Numbered from the stretch's first letter, positions 2,233 through 36,646 are shown. The stretch: 37,383 nt of DNA from Paludibacteraceae bacterium (GCA_045630365.1 JAZQSZ010000121.1:1-37383); one strand, 5' to 3'. The notes: a model not told the origin generated them from the sequence alone. Translations and numbers: made by a program.

Positions 2233-2261
2233 ATAGTCTTCGACGTAAATTACGTATAACC

Positions 2262-2377
2262 ATCAACGCGAAGCCATAAACGTGAACGAAGTGAACCACT
2301 TTCGTGAGCGCAGCGAACCATAAACGCGAAGCAAAGCAAAGCCATAAACGTGAGCGAAGCGAACAAAAACCAAGATC
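2262..2377 (+). repeat. degenerate ~22-nt tandem repeats (upstream flank of 4HB gene)
   Basis: Units such as cataaacgtgaacgaagtgaac, cactttcgtgagcgcagcgaac and cataaacgtgagcgaagcgaac. Confidence 0.8.
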
Positions 2378-2755
2378 ATGAGTAATACTATATATAATTT
2401 CGAAGAATTGGTTATCTGGAAATTATCCAGACAATTTGTTCGCGAAATTTATCTTTTGTTCAAAGATACAAAAGATTATGGTTTTCGAGATCAAATTCAG
2501 CGCGCTGCAGTGTCTGTAATGAATAATATAGCAGAAGGATTTCAACGTAACAAGTTTTCGAAAGACAATAAGCAATTTGTTTATTTTTTGAACATTGCCT
2601 ATGGATCTTGCGCTGAAGTTCGAAATATGCTATATATTGCAGAAGATGTAAATTATATCTCGCCCAATATAAGCACAGAATTGCGTGACAATATCACTCG
2701 TATAGAATTTAAAATAGAGAACTTAATCAAAAAGTTACAACAACCAACAGATTAA
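2378..2755 (+). CDS. four-helix-bundle protein (23S rRNA intervening-sequence protein / Avd-like family)
   Basis: 125 aa. Family signature QIQRAAVSVMNNIAEGFQR and later YGSCAEVRNMLYIAEDVNYIS. Divergent paralog of the three minus-strand copies. Confidence 0.85.
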   Translation: MSNTIYNFEELVIWKLSRQFVREIYLLFKDTKDYGFRDQIQRAAVSVMNNIAEGFQRNKFSKDNKQFVYFLNIAYGSCAEVRNMLYIAEDVNYISPNISTELRDNITRIEFKIENLIKKLQQPTD

Positions 2756-2764
2756 ACAAAACCA

Positions 2765-3006
2765 ACGCTTTAGCCACTTTCATGAGCGCAGCGAATCACC
2801 TTCGCGCAGCCACAAACGTGAGCGCAGCGAACCACTTTCATGAGCGCAGCGAATCACTTTCGTGAAGCCATAGACATGAGCGCAGCGAATCACTTTCGTG
2901 AGCGCAGTGAACCACCAACGCGAAGCAAAGCGCAGCCATAAACGTGAACGAAGTGAACCACTTTCGTGAGCGAAGCGAACCATAAACGTGAACAAAGTGA
3001 ACAAAA
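2765..3006 (+). repeat. degenerate ~22-nt tandem repeats (downstream flank of 4HB gene), same orientation as 2262-2377
   Basis: About 11 units of cactttcRtgagcgcagcgaaYc type, running up to the DUF1846 start codon. Confidence 0.8.
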
Positions 3007-4493: not shown

Positions 4494-4520
4494 ATACGCC
4501 TTGATTAAGGCGTATTTTTG
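4494..4520 (+). terminator. intrinsic terminator of DUF1846 gene
   Basis: 9-bp stem atacgcctt/aaggcgtat with a 4-nt loop, followed by TTTTTG. Confidence 0.75.
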
Positions 4521-4800
4521 TTTCTACCCTGATCTTTGTTTAACAAAAATACGCTTCGTTTCACTCCGCTACAAAAATATACAAAAATCAGTTGTTTGTT
4601 ATGTTATTAAGTCAAGAATGTTAAGAATAGTTATGAATATTTCTATTGTTATATTTTGTCTTTGCTCTGATGTGCAACTTTTAGTTGCAGGGAGAGCAAA
4701 AACAAATGTAATTCTTCTATCTGTCATTTTGTTTAAGTCATCCATGCAGGGACTGCATCTATATGACTACAAACAAAAAGGTTCGTGTCTACATAAGAAA
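4494..4800 (+). repeat. intergenic repeat family B, copy 1
   Basis: Shares a conserved block of about 110 nt (aacaaaaatacgcttcgtttcactccgctacaaaaatatacaaaaatcagttgtttgttatgttattaagtcaagaatgttaagaatagttatgaat) and two hairpins with copies at 6290 and 9905. Confidence 0.75.
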
Positions 4801-6289: not shown

Positions 6290-6875
6290 GGTTAATGTTT
6301 TATAACAAAAATACGCTTCGTTTCACTCGCTACAAAAATATACAAAAATCAGTTGTTTGTTATGTTATTAAGTCAAGAATGTTAAGAATAATTATGAATG
6401 TTTCAGTTGTTGTACTTTGTTTTGCTCTGGTGTGCAACTCGTTGCAGGTAGAGCAAACCACAAGTATTTGTTTTCATCTAATCTTTTGTCTTGCTCACCA
6501 ATGCAAGGTATTGCATTTATTTGAGCAAAGACAAAAATGATCATGTTATTCTTATTTATTTTTAAAGCGCAGCGTATTCTTGACCAAATTACTTTTTAAC
6601 AAGAATGTTAAGAATAGTTATGAGTATTTCTATTGTTACATATCTGCGTAACTTTTTTGTTTGTAGTCACCAATGCAGCATGCATTCTTATGACTAAAAA
6701 CAAAAATATGTTCTTGATTTTTAATTATTTTTATAGGCATCTCTAAGATGCCGTATTTATGTTTCTACTCTGATCTTTGTCTAACAAAAATGATCATGTA
6801 TATTCTTATTTATTCTTAAAGCGCAGCGTATTCTTGAGTAAATTAATGTTTAACAAGAATGTTATGAATAGTTAC
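6290..6875 (+). repeat. intergenic repeat family B, copy 2 (two tandem modules)
   Basis: 6295-6400 matches 4540-4645. 6650-6875 matches 10085-10325 almost base for base. Confidence 0.8.
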
Positions 6876-6983
6876 CTATAGCCAATCGCCCATTGCCCAT
6901 CACCTCTCCACTCTACACTCTACACCTCTCCACTCTACACTCTACGCCCTTACACTCTACACTCTACACTCTACACCCTACAC
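6876..6983. repeat. heptamer-periodic array (GCCCATW then CTACACY flavour)
   Basis: ctatagccaatcgcccattgcccatcacc...ctacactctacactctacaccctacacc. Supplies the TAG stop of the DUF354 gene. Confidence 0.85.
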
Positions 6984-8027: not shown

Positions 8028-8100
8028 AATTAGCGTAGAGCGTAGAGTGTAGGGGGTAGAGGCGATGGGGTTGTGTTTTCTACAGTTTTACACGCTACGC
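8028..8100. repeat. heptamer-arm palindromic element (RGTGTAG orientation), left flank of 4HB gene
   Basis: gcgtagagcgtagagtgtagggggtagaggc + gatggggttgtgttttctacag + ttttacacgctacgc. Confidence 0.75.
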
Positions 8101-8106
8101 TATTGA

Positions 8107-8466
8107 TTATTCTTTATATTTTGATCGTAGAGCAGATAGTTGTCTTGCTATACAATCTATTTTCTCTTCGATTTTATTATATTGTTCTTGTGTTAGATAT
8201 CCAAGTTCTACTGACACGTCCAATTGACTATCCACCTCCATCATAGATGCATACGCAATTCCAAGGAAGTGAGTTTTTTCTTTGTCCGACATCCTATTCA
8301 TGCCTTCGGCTATATTAGATGTAATAGATATCACAGCTCTACGTATCTGATCACATAGTGCATATTTCTCTTCAGTTGGAAAAAGTTTCAGCAGTTTGTA
8401 TACATCCACCACCAAACTCTTTGCATCTTGATACACATTTAAATTCTTGTACGAATACTTATTCAT
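8107..8466 (-). CDS. four-helix-bundle protein (23S rRNA IVS / Avd-like family)
   Basis: 119 aa. KLFPTEEKYALCDQIRRAVISITSNIAEGMNR. Flanked by inverted heptamer arrays at 8028-8100 and 8467-8750. Confidence 0.9.
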   Translation of the reverse strand: MNKYSYKNLNVYQDAKSLVVDVYKLLKLFPTEEKYALCDQIRRAVISITSNIAEGMNRMSDKEKTHFLGIAYASMMEVDSQLDVSVELGYLTQEQYNKIEEKIDCIARQLSALRSKYKE

Positions 8467-8750
8467 TATCCTTGTTAATATAAATTCTACACTCTACACC
8501 TTACACCCTACACCTTACCCCTACACTCTACACCTCTCCACCCTACACTCTACATTCTACACCCTACACTCTACACCCTACACCCTACACCCTACACTCT
8601 ACCCCCTACACCCTACACTCTACACCCTACACTCTACACCCTACACTCTACACCCTACACTCTACACCCTACACTCTACACCCTACACTCTACACTCTAC
8701 ACCCTACACTCTACACCCTACACTCTACACCCTACACTCTACACCCTACC
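8467..8750. repeat. long CTACACY heptamer array (about 40 units), right flank of 4HB gene
   Basis: Near-perfect alternation of ctacacc/ctacact over about 280 nt. It is the reverse complement of the 8028-8060 arm. Confidence 0.95.
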
Positions 8751-9900
8751 CCCGTTTCAACAATTTTACTCCTATTTTTCCAATCCAATATAGTAGTGGT
8801 TTGCGAACGCAGAGGAATCTGCCATGCTCCACTAGTTCGCCTCCGAACTTCGCTTTAAAATCGCGCACACCGTAGGCTTCTTCGGGTTTACCGGCTCCCA
8901 TCATATCAAATATCTTACATCCGTTTTCCGCTGCATATTTGATACCTAAGTAGGTAGCGTAGGTCGATGGATAGATATGCGGATATACGCCATCTATGCC
9001 ACAGGCAAACCATTCGTAGAGGGCTTTGCCTTTGAGTTCCATGCAGACTGTTCCGCCGACTATTTTACCTTCTAGCTCTGTGAGAATAAACCGCGCATCG
9101 GGGCAGCGATAGAGTTGCTCAAACCATTCCCAACGGAACAATGGTGTCTTGACTTTGGTCTTGTATAGGTCCAGGAGAATATCGTAGTAGGCACGTACTT
9201 GCTCTATGGTAGGTTGATATACGGGAGTCACGCCATCGCGGATGGTGGTGCGTATGTCACGCTTACGACTTTTGCCTAGGTTCTGGTCCACCACCTCAGG
9301 TGAGGATGTATCCACATGGAAGTTCAGGTGGGGTTGGTAGGCGTAGCCGTTGGTTTCAAACACTGACTTCCAACGACTATAGTCGTGGAAGTTGCGTGTT
9401 TCTATGTAGATTGGTGTAGGGCGTAGGGCGTAAGGCGTAGAGGCAGATGTTACAGCTCCGCTGTTTTCATTGCCTTTACACTCTACACTATACACTCTAC
9501 ACTCAGCAACTGCTTTCATCAGTGCTGATAAAGCAGTTGCGCTAATATCCTCTGCCAATAATGGTCCACCGATGATGATAGCGCGGCATGTAAGGTATTG
9601 CTTGATTGTATTAGTTTCTTTCGTGATATACCCGACGCATACGCCTTTGAGAGATGGTGTATGGGCGGATGATTCAACTTCGTTGGTTTCATTGCCTATA
9701 GCCCATTGCCCATTGCCCATTGCCTCTGAGTCGCACTCTTGCGACTCTACCACTCCCACCGCAAACGGCATCATCTCGCTAACAGAGACATAGAATTTAT
9801 ATGCTTCTGGTGTTTGAAACCATGTAGCAGTCGCAGAACTTTGAACAAGTTCCTGCCATTGTTGTTGGTCAATTTGTTCGTATGTTAGTATTTTTACCAT
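8746..9900 (-). CDS. FemAB-like / GNAT-fold peptidyl- or aminoacyl-transferase-like protein
   Basis: 384 aa. The length and C-terminal segment (YEWFACGIDG, DFKAKFGGELVEHGRF) resemble FemAB/BioF2-like acetyltransferase families; the function call is tentative. It carries two in-frame palindromic-element insertions. Confidence 0.55.
   Translation of the reverse strand: MVKILTYEQIDQQQWQELVQSSATATWFQTPEAYKFYVSVSEMMPFAVGVVESQECDSEAMGNGQWAIGNETNEVESSAHTPSLKGVCVGYITKETNTIKQYLTCRAIIIGGPLLAEDISATALSALMKAVAECRVYSVECKGNENSGAVTSASTPYALRPTPIYIETRNFHDYSRWKSVFETNGYAYQPHLNFHVDTSSPEVVDQNLGKSRKRDIRTTIRDGVTPVYQPTIEQVRAYYDILLDLYKTKVKTPLFRWEWFEQLYRCPDARFILTELEGKIVGGTVCMELKGKALYEWFACGIDGVYPHIYPSTYATYLGIKYAAENGCKIFDMMGAGKPEEAYGVRDFKAKFGGELVEHGRFLCVRKPLLYWIGKIGVKLLKRG
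9412..9503 (-). repeat. in-frame palindromic element (arm-core-arm) inside FemAB-like CDS
   Basis: Arm ggtgtagggcgtagggcgtaaggcgtagagg, core cagatgttacagctccgctgttttcattgcc, arm tttacactctacactatacactctacactc. Encodes ECRVYSVECKGNENSGAVTSASTPYALRPTP. Confidence 0.8.
9652..9724 (-). repeat. in-frame palindromic element inside FemAB-like CDS (GCCCATT arm)
   Basis: The core atgattcaacttcgttggtttcattgcc is followed by tatagcccattgcccattgcccattgcc. Encodes AMGNGQWAIGNETNEVESSAH. Confidence 0.7.
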
Positions 9901-9904
9901 CGTT

Positions 9905-10325
9905 TTGATTTATGTTTTATAACAAAAATACGCTCCGTTTCACTCCGCTACAAAAATATACAAAAATCAGTTGTTATATTTTAAGTCAAGAATGTTAAGA
10001 ATAGTTATGAATACCTATTGTTATATTTTGTCTTTGCATATAGGAAGCAACCCGTTGCTTAAGTATGCAAAACAAAATATTTTCTATATCTGCGTAACTT
10101 TTTTGTTTGTAGTCACCAATGCAGCATGCATTCTTATGACTAAAAACAAAAATATGTTCTTGATTTTTAATTATTTTTATAGGCATCTCTAAGATGCCGT
10201 ATTTATGTTTCTACCCTGATCTTTGTTTAACAAAAATGATCATGTATATTCTTATTAATTCTTAAAGCGTAGCGTATTCTTGACTAAATAAGTGTTTAAC
10301 AAGAATGTTATGAATAGTTACCTAT
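9905..10325 (+). repeat. intergenic repeat family B, copy 3
   Basis: Same module order as 6290-6875. Confidence 0.8.
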
Positions 10326-10385
10326 AGTCAATAGCCCATCGCCTCTACACCCTACACTCTACGCTCTACACCCTAGACCCTACAC
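10325..10385. repeat. heptamer array at 3' end of GT4 gene
   Basis: cctatagtcaatagcccatcgcctctacaccctacactctacgctctacaccctagaccctacac. Supplies ESVGSRV plus the stop. Confidence 0.8.
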
Positions 10386-11412
10386 TTTCATATATTTCTA
10401 CAAGGCGACTTGCCACTTGTTCGTTAGAGAGTCCCATTTCAATAATTTTCTCTCGACCATTAGTCTTGCCTTCGAATGCGATGGCTTGAAGTAGTGCTTG
10501 CGCAATATCCTTTGGATCACGAGATGGAACCACATAACAGCCTTCCACTCCACTCGTTCGTTCTGCCACATCGCCTACATCCACACTCACGATTGGACAT
10601 CCGCATGCCATGGCTTCTTTGATCACTTGTGGACTACCTTCTGTCTTGCTAGTCATGAGTAGCGCATCGCAATTATACATCAACGCATTTACCTGATCAC
10701 GATTATATCCTTTGAGTTCGATGAGGTTGATGGGGCGATTGTATTCATCGTCTATTGCCCATTGCCTATTGCCCATTGCCAATAGCCCATTACCCATAGC
10801 CGAATTATAACAAGCAATTGCCTCTTTTGCAAGTTCTGGATCCTTCACCGCATTGTCAAACGCACCTGCAAATAGTACATTTTTAACATCTTTGCTCAAT
10901 ACGCTCTGGACCCACTGATTAAGAGTCAGTAGTCCTACCAACTGATTTTGCATTTCGCTCCAAGGTCTTGGAAGGTTTATGCCGCAGGGAAGAAGGGTGC
11001 TACGCTTTTGGGGGCAATTGCCCATTGCCCATTGCCCATAGCCCATAGCCAACTCAACATTCTTCTTAGATACAAAGATATTATGCGCAGAAAGGCGCAT
11101 AGCTATTTTGGAGATGCGCAGGATACTGGGCACATTGATATCGCTTCCATGATAAGTAGTCACTACAGGTGCTATACGTTGCAGGTTTGCTAATAATCCG
11201 CATAGTCCATAGTGCGCATGGATGATATCAGGGCGTTCTGCACGGATAAAGCGTCGTAGTGCAGGTAGCTCACGCAGGTAGCCGATGATACCTTTGCCGG
11301 TTACGCCATAGCGTACTATCTGCACGCCGCAAGCCTCAAGGGCAGCGATCTGCTCCTCGATGAAAGGCACGAAGTGACCGCCTTTGTCGGATGCTATGAT
11401 TAGGAGTTTCAT
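10366..11412 (-). CDS. glycosyltransferase family 4 (GT-B)
   Basis: 348 aa. C-terminal GT4 signature TSKTEGSPQVIKEAMACGCPIVSVDVGDV. Two in-frame GCCCATW-repeat insertions give peptides AMGNGLLAMGNRQWAI and AMGYGQWAMGN. The start overlaps the stop of the upstream 4HB gene (ATGA). Confidence 0.85.
   Translation of the reverse strand: MKLLIIASDKGGHFVPFIEEQIAALEACGVQIVRYGVTGKGIIGYLRELPALRRFIRAERPDIIHAHYGLCGLLANLQRIAPVVTTYHGSDINVPSILRISKIAMRLSAHNIFVSKKNVELAMGYGQWAMGNCPQKRSTLLPCGINLPRPWSEMQNQLVGLLTLNQWVQSVLSKDVKNVLFAGAFDNAVKDPELAKEAIACYNSAMGNGLLAMGNRQWAIDDEYNRPINLIELKGYNRDQVNALMYNCDALLMTSKTEGSPQVIKEAMACGCPIVSVDVGDVAERTSGVEGCYVVPSRDPKDIAQALLQAIAFEGKTNGREKIIEMGLSNEQVASRLVEIYESVGSRV
10729..10801 (-). 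repeat. in-frame GCCCATW heptamer insertion in GT4 CDS
   Basis: gatggggcgattg...attgcccattgcctattgcccattgccaatagcccattacccatagcc. Confidence 0.7.
11010..11050 (-). repeat. in-frame GCCCATW heptamer insertion in GT4 CDS
   Basis: ggggcaattgcccattgcccattgcccatagcccatagcc. Its junction ttgcccccaaaa resembles the 3' junction of the 4HB gene at 11409. Confidence 0.7.
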
Positions 11413-11798
11413 TTTTGGGGGCTATTGGCGATTGGCGATTGGCTATTGGTTCGTTGAGATTTTAAGGAACGAATCATTTTACCTATCGAATTTATTTCTA
11501 CATCTAACATTTGTCTCATTTCCTTAGATATGTAACCCAAATCTAGCGAAATATCCAATTGACAATCAATTTCCATTAAAGAACCATATGCTATATCCAA
11601 GAAGTGAGCTTGCTCCTTAAGTGCTGTACGAGATAAACCTTCTGCGATATTGGAAGGAACTGATATAACAGCCCTACGCATTTGATCCCCCAACGCATAC
11701 TTTTCTTCTGCAGGAAAATGTTTTAACAAAGCATATACCGTCACAACTAATTGCCGTGACTTTGCGTATACATCTAATTTTTTATAACTATTGTTCAT
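11409..11798 (-). CDS. four-helix-bundle protein (23S rRNA IVS / Avd-like family)
   Basis: 129 aa. KHFPAEEKYALGDQMRRAVISVPSNIAEGLSR. The C-terminal tail TNSQSPIANSPQK is encoded by the heptamer arm. Confidence 0.9.
   Translation of the reverse strand: MNNSYKKLDVYAKSRQLVVTVYALLKHFPAEEKYALGDQMRRAVISVPSNIAEGLSRTALKEQAHFLDIAYGSLMEIDCQLDISLDLGYISKEMRQMLDVEINSIGKMIRSLKSQRTNSQSPIANSPQK
11413..11450. repeat. heptamer arm, left flank / C-terminal tail of 4HB gene
   Basis: tttgggggctattggcgattggcgattggctattgg. Confidence 0.8.
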
Positions 11799-11811
11799 AT
11801 ATTCTTTGTCT

Positions 11812-11908
11812 TAGCACCTATAACCCATCGCCCATAGCCAATTGCCCATAATCACCAATCACCCATAGCCAATAGCCAATCGCCCATAGCCAATAGCCCG
11901 AATGATTT
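11812..11908. repeat. heptamer arm, right flank of 4HB gene (inverted relative to 11413-11450)
   Basis: cctataacccatcgcccatagccaattgcccataatcaccaatcacccatagccaatagccaatcgcccatagccaatagccc. Confidence 0.85.
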
Positions 11909-17819: not shown

Positions 17820-18705
17820 GTGTTAGATATATTTTTTTTATAATTTTATACGCATCTGTCCATACAATTCTGCTATTCCAAGCGAAATTATTTCGATCAA
17901 TTATGTTAACTATATTTGATATTTTTCTGCGCCCCCCCGTAAGCAACTCGTTTATATTCGTGCTATTGTTGGATAAGATTATAAACAAAATAGCATACAC
18001 TATAGCTGCTGGTATATTTGCCACGAGGCCTAAAAGACGAAACACTTTCGTGTGCAATAACATTATAACCACAATAGCAGCACATAACAAATATTTGTCT
18101 ATGTTAGTAGGATGTAATATTCTATACTTTAGCTTATCAGTATTATGCAATGCGTAATTAGACAGAAAACCCGAATAAAAAATAGGATAATAGTAATACA
18201 ACTCTTCTATGGTACGAAAGTCGATGTAATTTCTAATTACGATTATTGCAAAATACAGAATGGCTATATACAACATTGCATAATGCTTATAAAAGCGCAA
18301 TGAGGTTATAAGCATGCACAAAAAAATCATAGGTAAATACCATAAATGTGTTCCGTTGATTGATGTAGGTGTATTCAAACATACTAAATCAGGAAACAAA
18401 CATTTATATAGTAATGCAAAAAAAATCAACGGAAAGAGGATACGACGAACTTTAGTCCACAGGAACCTCAAGAAAGACACCTGCTTTGTTGATGCATAAT
18501 ACAATACAGCCCCTGATATAAAAGTAAACCCACACAAACCAAACATTTTTGCTTGTATGCTCATAAATTTAGCAGAATCTGAAATATGCTCAATTATTGG
18601 ATGCCCTAATGCTGGCCATTCACCATTCAAAGCGCATATCGTATGATGAAATACAATAGCGATACAAGCTAAAACACGCCAATATTGCAACAAGAGATGT
18701 CTCAC
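17785..18705 (-). CDS. acyltransferase family 3 membrane protein (probable O-acetyltransferase)
   Basis: 306 aa, polytopic. The N-terminus WRVLACIAIVFHHT resembles the acyltransferase_3 motif. The 3' end overlaps the GT2 start by 35 nt, so the C-terminus is uncertain. Confidence 0.6.
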   Translation of the reverse strand: MRHLLLQYWRVLACIAIVFHHTICALNGEWPALGHPIIEHISDSAKFMSIQAKMFGLCGFTFISGAVLYYASTKQVSFLRFLWTKVRRILFPLIFFALLYKCLFPDLVCLNTPTSINGTHLWYLPMIFLCMLITSLRFYKHYAMLYIAILYFAIIVIRNYIDFRTIEELYYYYPIFYSGFLSNYALHNTDKLKYRILHPTNIDKYLLCAAIVVIMLLHTKVFRLLGLVANIPAAIVYAILFIILSNNSTNINELLTGGRRKISNIVNIIDRNNFAWNSRIVWTDAYKIIKKIYLTHGNTLHCHACV

Positions 18706-19100
18706 TTATTCGCTTGCTTAAAAGTAATAAACTTGTTAAGTAGATATTGTGTTAACGCTACAACTACAATCGTTATCAATTTGCACACAAACTCATTCCA
18801 ATGGGCAAAATCAACCATTATGTACAACATCAACGTGCTTATTCCAAGTCCTGTTAAGCCAACGGTATAAAACGACAAAGCGCGTTTTAGAGTGCGATCT
18901 TTGACTTTAAAATTAAAATGTCTATTAAGAAAAAACGATATTAAGATACCGATATGTATGCTGATCACATTAGCCCATAGATAAGGCATCATTTCAAAAT
19001 GACACAATAATGTATATACAGCAAAGTCCAACGAAGAACAAAATCCACCTATGATGGCATATAAAATAAGATTACGAAAACGATAGTACAATCCTTTCAT
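18702..19100 (-). CDS. GtrA-family membrane protein
   Basis: 132 aa with four hydrophobic helices. The N-terminus LILYAIIGGFCSSLDFAVYTLL is typical of GtrA-like proteins. A canonical promoter sits immediately upstream. Confidence 0.8.
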   Translation of the reverse strand: MKGLYYRFRNLILYAIIGGFCSSLDFAVYTLLCHFEMMPYLWANVISIHIGILISFFLNRHFNFKVKDRTLKRALSFYTVGLTGLGISTLMLYIMVDFAHWNEFVCKLITIVVVALTQYLLNKFITFKQANK

Positions 19101-19125
19101 ACAAAACGCTTATTAAACAACCGCG

Positions 19126-19157
19126 CAAAATTACAAAAAAAAATGCACATACGCAAA
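19126..19157 (-). promoter_or_regulatory. internal promoter upstream of the GtrA gene
   Basis: On the minus strand: TTTG, N20, TAatTTTG, about 25 nt upstream of ATG 19100. Confidence 0.5.
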
Positions 19158-19222
19158 TATATTTGCATTTTTAGGTAAAATAAATAGATTTTATCTACTT
19201 GTAACTTCTATCTCCGAACTTT

Positions 19223-20380
19223 TCACTTAATCAGCGCTTGCTTCACCGCACTCCCCCACTTCATCACCTGTCTTTTTGCTTTTAGCATCCATATTGGTGT
19301 TTTGTATGTTCGTTTCACGCTCTCAGGCTGCTTACTCCAATCTACTTTCGCCAGTTCTTGAGTCGCTATACCGTGATACTCCTTGCTTAGCCAATATTCG
19401 AGCAGGCCGTTGACGCGAAGTTTGTCTAGCAAACGACGCCAATCGTCGTTTGTTGGTTTATAGGTTATAGGTGATAGGTTATAGGCATTGGTATCGGCTT
19501 TGCTGATTTCCTCACCTTTAATCTTTAAACTCTCACCTATAGTCTCCTCCATGCGGAAGAGCATATGATGCTCTGGAGCATGGAGATTTCTCGTCGCTCT
19601 CAATGTAGCAGGTACATCATTATTATACCATGCTAATGCTTCGTTTAAGAATGCCACTTTATATTGCATTGCTATCTTTGACCATAGCAAGAAGTCTTCA
19701 CCAAGTTTAATACCCAAAGGAAATCCTCCCACTTCTTTAAACACCTTACGTGGAACGGCAACAGAGATAGACGTAACAGGCATAGAATCACCTTCGTAAT
19801 AAGCCTTTGGGTAATTGAAATATCCTGTTTCTATGTTATTAACGGCAACACGTGTTTTACCAGGTTTGTAATACACATAGTTGCATGCATATAGTCCCGC
19901 CTCTGGATAATCCTCAATAAGCTTCGCCATCTTCTCAAGGTAGGTAGGTTCCCACCAGTCGTCGGCGTCGAGGAAGGCGATGTAGTCGCCGCTGCTAGCC
20001 GCTACGCCCGAATTGCGGGCTGCGCTGACGCCAGCGTTCGATTGAGTGATCAAACGAACGCTAAGTTTATAGTTTATAGGTGATAGGTTAGAGGTAATTA
20101 GTTTATAGTTTATAGGTGATAGGTTAGAGGCATTGGTTTCAGCTTCGCTGTCTTCCTCGCCTTTAACCTTTAATCTATAACCTTTAACCTCATCTCTCTC
20201 GCCTTTAACCTTTAATCTTTCATCTATAAACTGTTGAACTATACTAGCAGAGTCATCCGTTGATCCATCGTCCACAACGATGAGTTCGTAGTCGGTATAT
20301 GTCTGTGCAAATACAGAATCAAGCGCCTTACGGATGTAAGGTGCTTTGTTGTACAGTGGTATGATGATCGAGAATTTCAT
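19223..20380 (-). CDS. glycosyltransferase family 2, interrupted by two in-frame palindromic elements
   Basis: 385 aa. FSIIIPLYNKAPYIRKALDSVFAQTYTDYELIVVDDGSTDDS, then a 56-codon repeat-encoded insert before GVSAARNSG...FLDADD. Confidence 0.85.
   Translation of the reverse strand: MKFSIIIPLYNKAPYIRKALDSVFAQTYTDYELIVVDDGSTDDSASIVQQFIDERLKVKGERDEVKGYRLKVKGEEDSEAETNASNLSPINYKLITSNLSPINYKLSVRLITQSNAGVSAARNSGVAASSGDYIAFLDADDWWEPTYLEKMAKLIEDYPEAGLYACNYVYYKPGKTRVAVNNIETGYFNYPKAYYEGDSMPVTSISVAVPRKVFKEVGGFPLGIKLGEDFLLWSKIAMQYKVAFLNEALAWYNNDVPATLRATRNLHAPEHHMLFRMEETIGESLKIKGEEISKADTNAYNLSPITYKPTNDDWRRLLDKLRVNGLLEYWLSKEYHGIATQELAKVDWSKQPESVKRTYKTPIWMLKAKRQVMKWGSAVKQALIK
19455..19542 (-). repeat. in-frame palindromic element in GT2 CDS
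   Basis: Arm ggtttataggttataggtgataggttatagg, core cattggtatcggctttgctgatttcctcacc, arm tttaatctttaaactctcacctatag. Encodes SLKIKGEEISKADTNAYNLSPITYKP. Confidence 0.85.
20063..20230 (-). repeat. in-frame palindromic element (duplicated arms) in GT2 CDS
   Basis: Left arm duplicated (agtttatagtttataggtgataggttagagg x2), core cattggtttcagcttcgctgtcttcctcgcc, then a long CTTTAAC/CTATAAC arm. Encodes KVKGERDEVKGYRLKVKGEEDSEAETNASNLSPINYKLITSNLSPINYKL. Confidence 0.85.
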
Positions 20381-20412
20381 TCTCTCTTAGTTTAAAGTTT
20401 ATAGGTTATAGT
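20381..20412. repeat. heptamer arm (TTTATAG flavour) downstream of 4HB gene
   Basis: tctcttagtttaaagtttataggttatagttt. Confidence 0.75.
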
Positions 20413-20772
20413 TTATAGGCAAGGGTTACGCTTTGCACGGAGCGATGATAACATTTTACCTATTTCATTAACCATTGTTTCTATTTGTTTGTAATCTTCG
20501 ATTGTTATATATTCTAAATCTTTTGCGATATCCATTTGAGCAAGTACCTCCATCAAAGAACCAAAAGCAATATTGATAAAATGTGCTTGTTCTTTTTCAG
20601 CAGTACGCCCCATGCCTTCTGCAATATTGGACGGAATGGATATTACAGCTCTACGCAGTTGATCGCACAAAGCGAATCTTTCATCTGCAGGAAATCCTTT
20701 TATTTTAGCATATACCAACTTAACCAAATCTTTGGATAATTGATATACTATTAAATTCTGAAAATGTGCCAT
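20413..20772 (-). CDS. four-helix-bundle protein (23S rRNA IVS / Avd-like family)
   Basis: 119 aa. KGFPADERFALCDQLRRAVISIPSNIAEGMGR. Confidence 0.9.
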   Translation of the reverse strand: MAHFQNLIVYQLSKDLVKLVYAKIKGFPADERFALCDQLRRAVISIPSNIAEGMGRTAEKEQAHFINIAFGSLMEVLAQMDIAKDLEYITIEDYKQIETMVNEIGKMLSSLRAKRNPCL

Positions 20773-20822
20773 TTCTTCTAGTTTATAGGTTAAAGATTAG
20801 AGGTTAGAGGCGATGGGCCTAA
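20773..20822. repeat. heptamer arm between 4HB and AAA ATPase genes
   Basis: ttcttctagtttataggttaaagattagaggttagaggcgatgggcc. Supplies the ATPase C-terminus and stop. Confidence 0.75.
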
Positions 20823-22043
20823 CATCCAATCTATTACATTTAATTTACGGATTCCATCATAAACTGGATTAAAATCCATATCCGTAGTCAATAAATACTT
20901 TGGATTTGAATCTTTGATTGCTTTCAATGAAGCCAATTCTCTCTCCAATGTTTCTTGGTTTTCTGTAGTCCAAGCCACTTGGTAATAAGATGTATAATCT
21001 TGGTTATCAATCACCACAAAATCTACCTCTAGATTATTACGTTTTCCTATAAACACTTCCTTGTTGCGACGAATCAATTCGAGATAAACCATATTCTCCA
21101 ACCAATGAGAGCGGTCTTTAAGTACACCTTTTTTTAACCTAACTTTGGCAAAAGCAGGATCCACGACATAATACTTATTCAAAGTTTGCAGAAGTCCTTT
21201 ACCCTTAATCTCAAATCGTGGGACTTTGTAGATTAAATAAGCCTCGCATAATGCATCAAGGTATTTTGCTACAGTCTGTTTATCTACAATTGTGCCATTC
21301 GATCGTAACGTATCAGATATAGAACGTGGAGAAACATACGAACCCACACTATCTAACACAAAGTCCAATATCTTATTAAAATCGTGCTTGTTAGTTATAT
21401 TCAAACGTTGAAAGATATCCTTTTCAACAATTGTTGTCAATATACTTTGAACAAACATATTAGCTTGTTTCTCACTAATAGCCAACTGTTTAGCATATTC
21501 AGGAATACCACCATAATGGATAAAATTCGCCAAAATATCATTTTTTGACAAGTTTGGCGATTTTTCAATTGTAAATCCATAATATTCAGCAAATTGCAAA
21601 GGTAGAAGATTAATCTCTACATAGCGACCTGTAAGTAATGTTGCTAATTCACCAGAAAGCATATATGCATTGGAGCCAGTAATATATACATCCACATTGG
21701 ATTTAATATACAAACTATCTACCAGACGCTGAAAATCTTTTACATTTTGAATTTCGTCTAAGAAAATGTAATTAGGCTGGTTTTCTACCAAACGATCTTT
21801 GATATGTGTATGAACTTGGAAAATATCCCCAATAGCTAATGTATCCAAATCCTCAAAATTATAGAATTGTATTTGCTGCTCCTGCACACCGTTTTGCCTC
21901 AATTCTTCCACGAACATTAGCAACAATGTTGACTTGCCACATCTGCGCACACCGGATATCACCTTAATGATATTTTGATCTTTAAGGTCACGCAGCATTT
22001 GCATATACTGCTTTCGCTCTATTAAATTGTGATTATTAATCAT
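20790..22043 (-). CDS. AAA-family ATPase with DUF4143-type C-terminal region
   Basis: 417 aa. Walker A GVRRCGKSTLL and Walker B YIFLDEIQ. The C-terminal GPSPLTSNL and the stop are encoded by the heptamer arm. Confidence 0.8.
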   Translation of the reverse strand: MINNHNLIERKQYMQMLRDLKDQNIIKVISGVRRCGKSTLLLMFVEELRQNGVQEQQIQFYNFEDLDTLAIGDIFQVHTHIKDRLVENQPNYIFLDEIQNVKDFQRLVDSLYIKSNVDVYITGSNAYMLSGELATLLTGRYVEINLLPLQFAEYYGFTIEKSPNLSKNDILANFIHYGGIPEYAKQLAISEKQANMFVQSILTTIVEKDIFQRLNITNKHDFNKILDFVLDSVGSYVSPRSISDTLRSNGTIVDKQTVAKYLDALCEAYLIYKVPRFEIKGKGLLQTLNKYYVVDPAFAKVRLKKGVLKDRSHWLENMVYLELIRRNKEVFIGKRNNLEVDFVVIDNQDYTSYYQVAWTTENQETLERELASLKAIKDSNPKYLLTTDMDFNPVYDGIRKLNVIDWMLGPSPLTSNL

Positions 22044-22044
22044 T

Positions 22045-22154
22045 TTATTTACTAGCTTTTAATCTCTAACCTATCGCCTCTAACCTCTAACCTATAACCT
22101 CTCACCTATAATCTTTAACCTATAACCTATAATCTATCACCTATAATCTTTAAC
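22045..22154. repeat. heptamer array (CCTATAA/CTTTAAC), inverted relative to 20381-20412
   Basis: taatctctaacctatcgcctctaacctctaacctataacctctcacctataatctttaacctataacctataatctatcacctataatctttaacc. Confidence 0.9.
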
Positions 22155-23153
22155 CTATAACCGAAACCATTTCTCTAACTTGAAAAGCACTCTCTCCACA
22201 AAATACACCAACGGATACAACTTCCATCTCCTCAAGCGCTTCATCTGCTCCATTTCAAACGCATGCGTATCATAATCCCACAGCACCGCTGGTGGCATCA
22301 GTTCCTCCAATACTTGTCTTCTCTCTTTATTTCGCAACGCTAGATTGGTCTCACTTATTCCCCCATCATCAAATATCGTCACATCTATATCCACATACAC
22401 TGGTTTCACTCTACCCAATCCTATCGCTTGCAGATACCACTTCCAATCACTCACAATCTTCAGACTCTCATCATACAAGCCATATTCTTCAAACAGATCC
22501 TTGCGGATATATGCACAATCATGGTTAAGGGTTGATTGATAGAATTGACATAACGAATACTCGGTATAACCACTTTTACCTACTATTTGACCAGCGGCAT
22601 TGACTTTCGTCATGTTGCCGTAGAAAATTGGTGTATTTAGTTTATAGTTTATAGATGATAGGTTATAGGCATTGGTATCAGCTCTGCTGTTTTCTTCACC
22701 TTTAATCTTTAAACTATCACCTTTAATCTCAGCGCATTGCGCAGCAAGCGCTGCCATCATTCTCTCAGTCACATCAGGCGCAGCCAATATATCGCCTGAA
22801 TTTAATATCTGAATATACTCCCCCGTCGCCATCTTAATGCCTTTATTCATGGCATTGTAAATGCCCTTATCCTTTTCGGATACCCATATAACCTTATGCG
22901 CAGGATTTTGGTGTGGATAGTCTTCCTTGTTCCCTTCTGCGCAGGATTTTAGCGAGGCATCTATCTCCCCTTCTTTCAGGAAGGGGCTGGGGGTAGGCTT
23001 GTAGATCTCCAAGACCTCTACCGACCCATCGGTGGAGCCACCATCTACAATAATATGTTCGATATTGGGATATGTTTGTGCAGCAACAGAGGCGAGCGTT
23101 TTGCGCAGTCCTTCGGCGTTATTGTAGTTGATGGTTATGATGGAGAGTCTCAT
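22155..23153 (-). CDS. glycosyltransferase family 2 with in-frame repeat insertions
   Basis: 332 aa. LSIITINYNNAEGLRKTLASVAAQTYPNIEHIIVDGGSTDGS. Insert peptides are PSPFLKEGE (GC hairpin) and IKGDSLKIKGEENSRADTNAYNLSSINYKL (palindromic element). Confidence 0.85.
   Translation of the reverse strand: MRLSIITINYNNAEGLRKTLASVAAQTYPNIEHIIVDGGSTDGSVEVLEIYKPTPSPFLKEGEIDASLKSCAEGNKEDYPHQNPAHKVIWVSEKDKGIYNAMNKGIKMATGEYIQILNSGDILAAPDVTERMMAALAAQCAEIKGDSLKIKGEENSRADTNAYNLSSINYKLNTPIFYGNMTKVNAAGQIVGKSGYTEYSLCQFYQSTLNHDCAYIRKDLFEEYGLYDESLKIVSDWKWYLQAIGLGRVKPVYVDIDVTIFDDGGISETNLALRNKERRQVLEELMPPAVLWDYDTHAFEMEQMKRLRRWKLYPLVYFVERVLFKLEKWFRL
22636..22730 (-). repeat. in-frame palindromic element in GT2 CDS
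   Basis: Arm tttagtttatagtttatagatgataggttatagg, core cattggtatcagctctgctgttttcttcacc, arm tttaatctttaaactatcacctttaatctc. Confidence 0.85.
22965..23002 (-). repeat. GC-rich hairpin motif inserted in-frame (ccccttc...gaagggg + ctggggg)
   Basis: ctccccttctttcaggaaggggctgggggtagg encodes PTPSPFLKEGE. A related copy at 13372-13412 encodes LPFRGGFRRGF. Confidence 0.6.
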
Positions 23154-27889: not shown

Positions 27890-28005
27890 GTTCACATTTT
27901 GTTTTGCTTCCCCAAATGCGACATAATAGAGCAAAACACAAAAGTGGTCATGTTATTCTTAATTATTCTTAAAGCGCAGCGTATTCTTGACTAAATAAAT
28001 TCCAG
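27890..28005 (+). repeat. intergenic repeat family B, partial copy 4
   Basis: Hairpin gttttgct...agcaaaac followed by acaaaagtggtcatgttattcttaattattcttaaagcgcagcgtattcttgactaaat, matching 6520-6590. Confidence 0.7.
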
Positions 28006-28054
28006 TACGTAATTACCACCTAATTCTCCCACTCGCGACATCTATGATATAGAT

Positions 28055-28094: not shown

Positions 28095-28139
28095 AATTAA
28101 ATCATCCTGAAATCCTGCACTTTGCAAATCGCATCGACT

Positions 28140-28847
28140 TTACACTTTACACTTTACGCTTTCTAACTGCCTCAAAGCAATATCTCTAATCTGCCCGACT
28201 CGCTCCTTACTTACGCCTATCAACATCGCCACTTCTTGCAGACTCATAACATCTCGCACCCCCATTCCATACAGCAATTGCACTACCATTCTCTCTCGTC
28301 TCGGCAACTGTTTCAATGCGGCATAAACACCCTGCTTTATTTCCTCGCTAATCATCATGTTTTCTGCCGACTCATATGACGCACTACCTAGCACATTCGT
28401 CTCATCCACTACCATATCGGCATGACAAATATACTCCTCGTCATCTTCAAACACTTTACTATCCAGCATCAGCAACTCCTCTGACTTATTTTGCACAAAT
28501 AGCAATATCCTGTTCTTGATACACTCTGTGGCAAAACTAGCAAAACTATATCCTAACGACGCATCAAAGCAGTCTACCGCTTTTATCAGTCCGATATTGC
28601 CCTCTTGTATCAAGTCCAACACCTCTGCTTTATGCCTAAATTTTGAGTTTTTCGCCATACTCACTACCAGTCGTAAGTACGACTCTATTAGCACCTTTCT
28701 GGCTTCCATATCACCTTGACTCATACGTTCTATTACTGCGTATTCTTCTTGTTCAGTTAACATTTTGTATCTTGCCACTTCCTGTGAATACCAATCCAAT
28801 GGCGACTTCTCTGCTTCAAAATTCATAATACTTAATTTAAAATTCAT
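28140..28847 (-). CDS. sigma-70 family RNA polymerase sigma factor (non-ECF, group-3-like size)
   Basis: 235 aa. Region 2 LRLVVSMAKN...DLIQEGNIGLIKAVDCFD and region 4 LPRRERMVVQLLYGMG...LQEVAMLIGVSKERVGQIRDIALRQL. The start could instead be M8 at 28826. The C-terminal VKCKV and the stop come from a heptamer arm. Confidence 0.85.
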   Translation of the reverse strand: MNFKLSIMNFEAEKSPLDWYSQEVARYKMLTEQEEYAVIERMSQGDMEARKVLIESYLRLVVSMAKNSKFRHKAEVLDLIQEGNIGLIKAVDCFDASLGYSFASFATECIKNRILLFVQNKSEELLMLDSKVFEDDEEYICHADMVVDETNVLGSASYESAENMMISEEIKQGVYAALKQLPRRERMVVQLLYGMGVRDVMSLQEVAMLIGVSKERVGQIRDIALRQLESVKCKV

Positions 28848-35866: not shown

Positions 35867-35922
35867 GTTTTAACCTATCTTAGATAAGAACACGAGCGTA
35901 AAGCGTAAAGTGTAAACTCGAT

Positions 35923-35953
35923 GCGATTTGCAATGTGCAAGTCGCATTTTTTT
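35923..35953 (+). terminator. intrinsic terminator of the four-gene TcmP operon
   Basis: Stem gcgatttgca / tgcaagtcgc (one G:U) with loop atg, followed by ATTTTTTT. Confidence 0.75.
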
Positions 35954-36164
35954 ATCCTCGACGCCATCTAGTGCGCTAGACTATCTATAGTCCATAGAGC
36001 AAGCAGTCGTAAACTACAATTCCATTATCAATTTTCGCGCAGGCGCACATGTCATTTACAATTTCTATCTACTTTACGCTTTACACTTTACACATATATG
36101 ATTCGGTCGCAAGTTGTTGGAATAAGTTGTCTAAGTTGTCGTATTTTTTTCGGTTTGATTGCGC

Positions 36165-36222: not shown

Positions 36223-36490
36223 TACGAATCCACTCTCGATGTATATCCTTGATTATCTGCCATTTGTAGAGATTATTTCACAAACTACGAGAAAACGCCC
36301 TCACAAGTTCGAGAAAACCCTTTGTTTTACCCCTTTTTTTCGATATATATATAGTAGGGCGTCTCTTCTGACGCAGCACATGTTGCGCAGATGTTACGCC
36401 GATGTTAGCACCTATATTTTAGACCTTCTAACAAGTGTAAAGTGTAAACTCGATGTGATTCGCTTTGCACAATTTGTCTTACAATTAAGA

Positions 36491-36564
36491 GGGGTTGTAG
36501 CTCAGTCTGGTAGAGCAGCTGTTTTGCAAACAGAAAGTCGTGGGTTCGAATCCCACCTTCTCCA
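36491..36564 (+). tRNA. tRNA-Ala(UGC)-like gene, possibly defective
   Basis: Hand-folded cloverleaf. D arm is gctc/agtctggta/gagc. The anticodon loop tttgcaa gives UGC. T arm is gtggg/ttcgaat/cccac. G3:U70 is present. However, 5:68 and 6:67 are U:U, 27:43 is G:A, and no CCA is encoded. Confidence 0.6.
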
Positions 36565-36646
36565 CAATGTGGGGCACCTCCCGCAACCAAGAACGTTCTT
36601 TAAAATCCTATCCTCTAAACTCTCAACTCTAAACTCTCAATCACGT

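Follow-up and report, generated by a model that had tools for sequence, protein, structure and literature searches.

The stretch analysed here, 37,383 nucleotides from a Paludibacteraceae bacterium (GCA_045630365.1 JAZQSZ010000121.1:1-37383; hereafter the window), is a polysaccharide-synthesis locus with many glycosyltransferases, and its genes lie mainly on the minus strand. We examined positions 20381-20822, which contain a gene for a small four-helix-bundle (4HB) protein (20413-20772) adjoined by tandem arrays of 7-nt units; the final codons and the stop of this gene (CCTATAA) fall within the first unit of its right-hand array. Three further 4HB genes are present at 2378-2755 (plus strand), 8107-8466 and 11409-11798 (both minus strand), and all four matched the PF05635/TIGR02436 family at 104-127 bits (cut-off 33.8). 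The only solved structures related to the 20413 protein were PDB 2GSC and 2RLD, both uncharacterised. The matches of the 4HB protein consisted of 4HB/Avd-like families and these two structures, with no recognisable transposase among them. A protein identical to the 20413 product was found in 84 blocks of a public metagenome index, from gut samples, and the sequencing runs containing the region are gut and bovine gut metagenomes. At the Rfam gathering thresholds a tRNA was the sole match in the whole window; the elements described below are not inserted in a 23S rRNA helix.

Short gene-less elements with such arrays were also found. Read in gene sense, each runs from a G-rich 7-nt array (GGTTATA, GGTTAAA, GGTGATA), the left arm, through a 33-nt core to a C-rich array (CCTATAA, CCTATCA, CCTCTAA), the right arm. 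The window and related contigs yielded 30 unique cores with the consensus GGCGAGGAAAACAGCGGAGCTGAAACCAATGCC. The core is composed of three modules and is not two joined gene ends. Part 1 (GGCRAGGAAAA) is the purine-rich end of the left arm and follows left arms with or without a 4HB gene; GGCAAGGAAAATG-type motifs occurred after left arms before non-4HB genes and also within left arms. Part 2 is a conserved 4-bp stem with a 3-nt loop, CAGC-NNN-GCTG. In the 30 unique cores 96% of the cells of this tip helix were paired and 3 cells were compensatory. Covariation of the helix was considered and dropped, as 29 of 500 shuffles equalled those 3 cells; the helix is conserved, not covarying. Part 3 (AWACCAATGCC) is like a GCCAAT-type heptamer and joins the right arm. 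At the 3' junction of 4HB cassettes there is a counterpart of part 3 only, and in some relatives also of part 2. In other strains a type-2 core (GGCGGAGAATAGCGGCATAGCCGCATAATGCTAGCC) takes the same position, and its sequence is unrelated to type-1. A GTDB scan (one genome per species) found the type-1 core only in two fecal Paludibacteraceae metagenome-assembled genomes, besides one armless chance match. The short elements were predicted to fold into long but imperfect hairpins (-16.5 to -41.8 kcal/mol, z = -2.3 to -6.5). GCGAAGC-type mini-hairpins recurred in the cores, in the trailers that follow 4HB genes and in the 22-nt repeats around the 2378 gene; d(GCGAAGC) is an unusually stable DNA hairpin. 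Each of these 22-nt repeats (CCACTTTCGTGAGCGCAGCGAA; 2260-2377, 2774-3005) has a GCGNAGC mini-hairpin, and comparable 22-nt units in a locus of another organism (L020) consist of two heptamers and a GCGNAGC-type mini-hairpin.

Arms of the CCTATAA, CTACAC and GCCCAT flavours each occurred on both short and gene-bearing elements, side by side (Table 1). In the CTACAC cassette (8032-8753) the complementarity of the arms was 74-79% over 42-45 nt (pairs I6-I13). In the GCCCAT cassette the right arm (11420-11449) is read through by the 4HB open reading frame (ORF), and the arms were complementary over 52 nt at 77% (I2) and 42 nt at 81% (I10). The layout at the 20413 gene differs. Both arrays adjoining it are of the right, C-rich type and are therefore direct repeats, not inverted ones, and the matching left arm lies 1.25 kb upstream, past an AAA_14/DUF4143 gene; a complementary border exists for the 20413 gene through that arm alone. 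The arms around the AAA_14/DUF4143 gene were 83% complementary over 42 nt (I3, I4). Three relatives (L001, L003, L005) have the 33-nt core where the window has the AAA_14/DUF4143 gene. In most relatives the 20413-type 4HB subfamily has a complete short element directly 5' of it and another right arm after it. The trailer and right arm can be present as a duplicate on both flanks of the 4HB ORF. The 20413 gene is a rearranged case, downstream of the site where relatives hold a complete short element. The arms bracket the AAA_14/DUF4143 gene as well as a tRNA-Ala, and are not ends peculiar to a 4HB transposon.

Table 1. Arms, cassettes, short elements and associated genes of the window, in order of position.
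Feature	Position	Strand	Details
Fourth 4HB gene with flanks	2260-3005	plus	gene 2378-2755; direct 22-nt repeats (CCACTTTCGTGAGCGCAGCGAA) on both sides, not 7-mers
Complete CTACAC cassette	8032-8753	minus	left arm 8487-8753 (38 units), 4HB gene 8107-8466, trailer 8062-8106, right arm 8032-8061
Short element, CTACAC flavour	9407-9505	minus	core 9442-9474; in frame within FemAB-like gene 8746-9900; -41.8 kcal/mol, z = -6.5
GCCCAT-flavoured left arm and core	9664-9724	minus	core 9664-9696; in frame within FemAB-like gene 8746-9900; right side a short CATACAC remnant
Complete GCCCAT cassette	11409-11899	minus	left arm 11827-11899, 4HB gene 11409-11798
Short element	19449-19547	minus	core 19484-19516; in frame within GT2 gene 19223-20380; -18.2 kcal/mol, z = -2.4
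Short element, expanded arms	20067-20229	minus	core 20129-20161; in frame within GT2 gene 19223-20380; z = -4.0
Right arm, C-rich 7-nt array directly 3' of 20413 gene	20388-20418	minus	CCTATAA ACTATAA CCTATAA ACTTTAA, period 7
4HB gene	20413-20772	minus	PF05635/TIGR02436, S23p/Avd-like, 119 aa; E = 2e-36 and 5e-34
Second right-type array directly 5' of 20413 gene	20783-20820	minus	CCTCTAA CCTCTAA TCTTTAA CCTATAA, after pre-arm unit GCCCATCGCC
AAA_14/DUF4143 ATPase gene	20790-22043	minus	Pfam; fills the core position between left arm 22060-22162 and right-type array 20783-20810
Left arm, G-rich 7-nt array	22060-22162	minus	about 15 units, GGTTATA/GGTTAAA/GGTGATA type
Short element	22633-22731	minus	core 22668-22700; in frame within GT2 gene 22155-23153; hairpin fold

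The original prediction held that the core resembles fused 5' and 3' termini of the 4HB genes. All strings quoted for it were found at their positions in the minus-strand reading. The 20413-20772 gene has ctagaagaaATGgcaca at its start and gcaaagcgtaacccttgcctataaac at its end; cores start with GGTGAAGAAAACAGCA (22685-22700) and GGTGAGGAAATCAGCA (19501-19516) and end with ...GATACCAATGCCTATAACC (19477-19495, 22661-22679); the 11409 gene ends ...cgaaccaatagcc, the 8107 gene is followed by ...atcaatagcg, and GGCAATGAAA begins the cores at 9442-9474 and 9664-9696. The resemblance was evaluated by local alignment of the window cores with the window gene junctions, using 2000 shuffles per core. On the 5' side it stayed at chance level (p = 0.34-0.96): the best match to the 20413 gene, GAAGAAA (7/7), gave p = 0.34 and GAAGAAAT/GAGGAAAT gave p = 0.63, while the 8107 and 11409 genes gave p = 0.60 and p = 0.96, respectively. 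On the 3' side the claim stood in part. The 8107 trailer aligned with the CTACAC core (AATAGCGTAGCGTGTAA-AACTG over AACAGCGGAGC-TGTAACATCTG) at p = 0.0065, a nominal value for one of three flavours, in a register that differs from the one first quoted. The 20413 gene was marginal, with p = 0.067 against the 19484 core (GCAAAG-CGTAACCCTTGCC over GCAAAGCCGATACCAATGCC) and p = 0.53 against the 22668 core, and the 11409 gene gave p = 0.37. The GCAAAGC match falls, in the core, on the variable hairpin loop and, in the gene, on the codons for Ala-Lys-Arg at the conserved C-terminus of the protein (...SSLRAKR). As text the observation holds; its 5' side does not exceed chance and its 3' side is weak.

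In a class comparison, sequences before right arms had a median score of 8 after 4HB genes and 7 in other contexts, and the medians for sequences after left arms were 7 (4HB) and 6 (other), with no class effect. The exception was the relatives ending ...GCGCAAAGCGCGTACCCAATGCC (p = 0.003). When 1.49 million positions were scanned with a profile built from core positions 12-31 (one indel permitted), the best 75 unique matches included no 4HB 3' end, and we gave up the idea that a profile would recognise 4HB ends as core-like.

Some relatives carry more of the 4HB 3' region in their short elements. One element of intermediate length was found in L040, where a 4HB pseudogene is preceded by a left arm, an interior of 90 nt and a right arm; over its final 47 nt the interior aligned with the 4HB 3' trailer with a score of 26 (shuffle mean 10.5, maximum 19, p < 0.001). 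In L083, TTTGCGGccTCTT aligned with the local 4HB ORF end TTTGCGGTCTT; about 11 nt of the ORF end are in the core, and two short elements of that locus have a 14-nt interior, CTTTGCGGCCTCTT, matching the same ORF end. Among 90 unique 4HB 3' regions, the cognate one ranked 1st or 2nd for the L040, L083, GCCCAT and CTACAC elements; it was not top-ranked for the type-1 consensus (rank 11), the type-2 core, L036 and two L038 elements. No 5' signal was detected in any of the alignment or class tests. The relationship at the right junction is thus real, small and one-sided, and what the gene-less copies have in common with the 20413 gene is its arms and, at the right-hand junction, no more than a few bases, the shared piece being about 10-12 nt within the window.

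Intermediates carrying partial 4HB ORFs had also been predicted. None was found between arms by tblastn and hmmsearch, which returned only full-length genes and point-mutated pseudogenes, and the 4HB pseudogenes decay by point nonsense mutation, not by deletion. The distances from a left arm to the next right arm were bimodal, at most 41 nt (53 pairs) versus about 375-425 nt (4HB), with a further value of about 1250 nt for the ATPase gene. Two window elements with interiors of 154-164 nt contained the tRNA-Ala and an unassigned sequence, without a 4HB remnant.

These results bear on the original proposal in its strict form, a deletion model in which each short element would be the 5' leader and start of a same-flavour cassette fused to the 3' end of its gene. 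Flavour-matched cassettes and short elements stand side by side, the cognate 3' ends rank at or near the top for four elements, and pieces of ORF end are present in L083 and of trailer in L040, all of which speak for it. The L012 cassette even reads left arm-GGCAAGGAAA-ATG, but this layout occurred once and is equally well explained if the common arrangement lost its first right arm together with the 3' part of the core. Nevertheless, the model is unlikely. The cores of the three window flavours were mutually identical at 19-26 of 33 positions (58-79%), versus 4-9 of 17 (24-53%) for the 17-nt 5' and 3' gene junctions and 63% for the ORFs; the cores are far more alike than the gene ends, and deletion flavour by flavour is therefore rejected. 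In addition, the 5' side was at chance in all tests, the core profile missed the 4HB ends, partial ORFs were lacking between arms, and type-2 cores have unrelated sequence in the same place. Of the proposal that the short elements are internal-deletion derivatives, like MITEs (miniature inverted-repeat transposable elements), the membership in one family and the shared right junction survive; the core is not made of fused termini and did not arise separately in each flavour. In L065 a 4HB ORF (1759-2121) contains a left-arm-like array in its 3' part (GAGAGGA GAGTGGA GAGTG, encoding EEWREESGE), 43 nt before the right arm. Recombination of this internal array with the upstream left arm would leave the gene's 3' end as the core of a short element, and such an array could seed deletions as the strict model would have it.

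The short elements reside largely in genes. Of the 32 unique type-1 elements, 24 were wholly enclosed by sense open frames of 150 codons or more, in polysaccharide-synthesis genes, and the remaining 8 lie mainly directly upstream of a 4HB gene. When element 19449-19547 was read by hand, only one of its six frames was open, and a single open frame would explain the uniform sense orientation within genes as survivorship. Two elements lie in the GT2 gene 19223-20380, and the one at 20067-20229 splits the Glycos_transf_2 Pfam domain after profile position 56. At the same sites, homologous proteins of other strains had no element, a remnant, another flavour or a nested pair, and the arm lengths differed between strains by 42-nt and 36-nt blocks. 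In the insertion-site alignments an element was present in some strains and absent from others at one and the same site; a target-site duplication was not seen there, in flanks too diverged for one to be read. In a FemAB-like gene of L001 an element is nested within another (18438-18572; alignment columns 69-112), and this site is empty in L004; a second FemAB-like site (columns 168-198) has a different flavour in the window, L001 and L005. For annotation, this means that in this lineage glycosyltransferase and other surface-polysaccharide genes contain in-frame hairpin elements of 80-160 nt that vary between strains, alter protein length and split domain matches.

Relatives of the 20413 protein were collected from 80 metagenome loci (48-97% identity). 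Period-7 arrays were present on both sides of 52 of the 68 metagenomic 4HB genes with enough flank, and control ORFs had arrays on both sides in 7 of 166 cases and inverted arrays in 1 of 166. In 37 of the 52 the upstream unit agreed with the reverse-complemented downstream unit at 6 or more of the 7 positions, compared with 12% of mismatched pairs. The units were of 35 different flavours, and the co-variation of the two arms across flavours is evidence for selection or templating of complementarity. The polarity is fixed: 46 of the 80 tabulated genes had a G-rich array upstream and a C-rich array downstream of the sense ORF, and one of the 80 had a C-rich array upstream with none downstream. 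The same layout was found on plasmids of the cyanobacteria Nostoc ((AGTAGGG)8 ... (TCCCTAC)5), Anabaena, Calothrix (GGGTGTA ... TACACCC), Geminocystis, Picosynechococcus and Stanieria, and, with 8-nt units, in the non-cyanobacterial Gemmatirosa. In Azospirillum (L114) a 4HB gene lies inside a 23S rRNA gene (Rfam LSU rRNA) and is a classical intervening sequence (IVS), with the arms GAGGACG GATGACA GAGGACG ... CCGTCCT CTGTCTT CTGTCAT.

Several loci have neighbours or variants worth recording. On three cyanobacterial plasmids (L107, L109, L116) 4HB cassettes lie between cas6 and cas4 (Anabaena sp. 90, Pseudanabaena) or between cas10 and cmr3 (Picosynechococcus). In a CRISPR survey the 4HB domain appears, without comment, among the CRISPR-linked proteins (PMC10910872), and the domain was probably scored as CRISPR-associated because 4HB cassettes sit among cas genes. 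In another organism, L020 (1-20378) contains seven PF05635 genes, each with its own flavour of flanking short repeats, scattered among defence-type genes (AbiEii, AAA_15/AAA_21 ATPases, DUF4276, GmrSD_N and two reverse transcriptases). The gene for a protein of 245 aa whose N-terminal part is a 4HB-like domain and whose tail is a coiled coil (L017, 3597-4334) has ACCGGA-type arrays on both sides, and therefore longer relatives of the family also lie in short-repeat arms. In L025, small PDDEXK_3 (PF13366) genes at 864-1301 and 2423-2896 are placed between polysaccharide genes like the 4HB genes, and may be another class of small hitch-hiking gene.

An explanation without descent was also weighed, in which replication slippage would create and grow inverted 7-nt arrays around any small hairpin or gene and only the arms would be shared, homogenised by gene conversion between neighbours. 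Heptamers have been reported as the commonest class of bacterial repeats, with slippage as the proposed cause (PMC4679880, PMC4692102). The bracketing of an ATPase gene and a tRNA, the whole-block differences in arm length between strains, the different flavours at one site in different strains and the chance level of most core-to-gene alignments are all in keeping with it. However, neutral slippage does not account for so strong and wide an association with PF05635 genes (52/68 versus 7/166; four phyla), the arrays keep a fixed polarity with respect to the ORF, and the interiors of L040 and L083 are clearly homologous to their own 4HB 3' regions. We therefore judge this explanation improbable. 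That the short hairpins are recombination sites like integron attC, with the 4HB, ATPase and glycosyltransferase genes as exchangeable cassettes, is very improbable: an identical 4HB gene occurs in polysaccharide loci with differing upstream neighbours, the trailer and right arm are duplicated around the 4HB ORF and the loci are mosaic, but three quarters of the short elements are within coding sequences, the elements do not lie at the mosaic breakpoints of the GT2 alignment, and no integrase was noticed in the gene tables of the loci, of which no systematic search was made.

From the observed architecture, the co-variation of the arms over about 35 flavours, the fixed polarity, the in-frame residence and the presence/absence polymorphism, we consider that the region, with a slightly better than even chance, consists of members of one hairpin-element family of the 23S rRNA IVS kind. 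Each element has a purine-rich tandem 7-nt array upstream, its reverse complement downstream and a loop between them, which holds a PF05635 gene (the 8107 and 11409 cassettes) or the 33-nt core alone (the short elements). Gene-bearing and gene-less elements would interconvert by deletion or recombination between arms, which would fit the one-sided sharing of the junction, and the gene-less copies plausibly descend from the gene-bearing ones. By analogy with rRNA IVSs, the arms are predicted to pair in the transcript and to be RNase III substrates, or else they may pair as single-stranded DNA. The elements would spread in a way in which the 4HB protein may take part.

Several points weigh against membership in this IVS-like family. 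No inverted arm adjoins the 20413 gene itself, and the similarity at the right junction is short and may partly reflect degenerate arm units. Some arm pairs of short elements lack complementarity, as where a TTAAAGG-type left arm is combined with a CTACACC-type right arm (L011:4569-4661, L005:5917-6008). The survey covered about 750 kb of loci selected for 4HB genes or cores, and not a whole genome. The sense and antisense stems were equally stable (21 vs 28 cassettes, p = 0.09). The 4HB region is present in metatranscriptome contigs, and those on 19100-22300 mostly match the arms of other elements and gave no processing sites or ends. Since the stems are equal on both strands, the complementarity is Watson-Crick on both strands, and homogenisation templated by DNA would account for this more readily than selection acting on a single transcript. 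The G-U signature specific to RNA stems was looked for and not found, the sense and antisense folds were alike, and the RNA stem was not favoured over DNA.

Among known systems, the 23S rRNA IVSs with an S23p ORF (Leptospira, Coxiella burnetii and others; PMC4990558) likewise have a PF05635 ORF in the loop of a stem with complementary termini, and gene-less hairpin versions exist there too. They have been described as having complementary termini and as being cut by RNase III, and for their origin and the function of the ORF hypotheses only have been offered (PMC4990558). The Azospirillum example (GAGGACG/GATGACA ... CCGTCCT/CTGTCAT) has arms of 7-nt units, as in the window. Unlike the rRNA IVSs, the window elements lie between or within protein genes of a polysaccharide locus, their arms are long tandem heptamer arrays, and the arms adjoining the 20413 gene are direct. 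MITEs are likewise short gene-less elements that share terminal inverted sequences with longer gene-bearing elements of the same genome. In the window, however, a recognisable transposase is missing from the long partner, target-site duplications were not seen, variable tandem arrays stand in place of fixed terminal inverted repeats, and the interior is not demonstrably a deletion product. The Rickettsia palindromic elements, which Ogata et al. are said to have described in Science in 2000, are reportedly about 100 nt long, in frame within protein-coding genes in one reading frame, and tolerated as extra surface peptide segments. The short elements of the window share the in-frame residence in genes and fold as hairpins, but they belong to another phylum and differ in sequence, and they have heptamer-array arms and a gene-bearing counterpart. 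Avd, of the diversity-generating retroelements, has a homologous 4HB fold, and PF22296 and NF033474 were matched, all below the cut-offs; in contrast to those systems, no reverse transcriptase or template/variable repeat stands beside the window genes.

Bacterial heptamer repeats are a further parallel, since they are tandem 7-nt units between and within genes, some forming convergent inverted stem-loop pairs, as here. The cyanobacterial short tandemly repeated repetitive (STRR) sequences are heptamer repeats, and expansions of the PF05635 family follow heptamer-repeat taxa more widely. Heptamer-repeat taxa that also have PF05635 genes include the cyanobacteria and Xanthomonas (PDB 2GSC). Described repeats comprise TAACTGA (PMC4679880), the convergent GGGAATC pairs of Xanthomonas and GGGGAYT of Nostoc (PMC4692102), and the four-heptamer elements of Geobacter (PMC2700814). 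Two of these papers (PMC4692102, PMC2700814) do not mention S23, four helix or intervening, and the third, on Beggiatoaceae, does not mention the latter two. A literature search, with most subscription journals outside its coverage, found no paper linking S23p/4HB genes with heptamer arrays.

A wider proposal is tentative, and we regard it as rather doubtful: the PF05635 (S23p) genes would be the cargo, perhaps the agent, of one ancient cross-phylum family of hairpins with heptamer stems, the rRNA IVSs would be members that landed in rRNA, and much of the heptamer load (cyanobacterial STRR, the GGGAATC pairs of Xanthomonas and the in-frame elements here) would be gene-less descendants. If the architecture is general, it would join two puzzles, namely the function and spread of the S23p ORF and the origin of abundant bacterial heptamer repeats. 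Binding of the protein to the arms, cutting by RNase III and the stability of the repeats without the gene would then become testable in Bacteroides, Nostoc and Xanthomonas.

Other arrays and repeats were found in the window. The tRNA-Ala(TGC) at 36491-36565 (plus strand) lies between 7-nt arrays of AAGTGTA units (36433-36448) and CTCTAAA/CTCTCAA units (36613-36640), which are not complementary to each other. At 35895-36093 a pair of arrays (GTGTAAAG ... TTTACAC flavour) surrounds a 154-nt interior that had no protein or Rfam match and may be a small RNA or other cargo. A 45-nt inverted repeat, 93% complementary (28116-28160, 35895-35939), encloses a 7.7-kb segment, and a third partial copy (36433-36463) stands beside the tRNA-Ala. 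The products of this segment are sigma-70-like, CHC2 zinc-finger primase-like, a weak DUF5675 match and DUF5131, and the segment looks like an integrated mobile element beside a tRNA. Repeated intergenic modules of 40-290 nt occur at 4511-4662, 6297-6926, 9915-10372 and 27954-28027. Among them 6640-6926 and 10086-10372 are 94% identical, and the motif TATTCTTATT..AAAGCGCAGCGTATTCTTGAC is present in four copies; these modules may be promoter or regulatory blocks of the polysaccharide locus.

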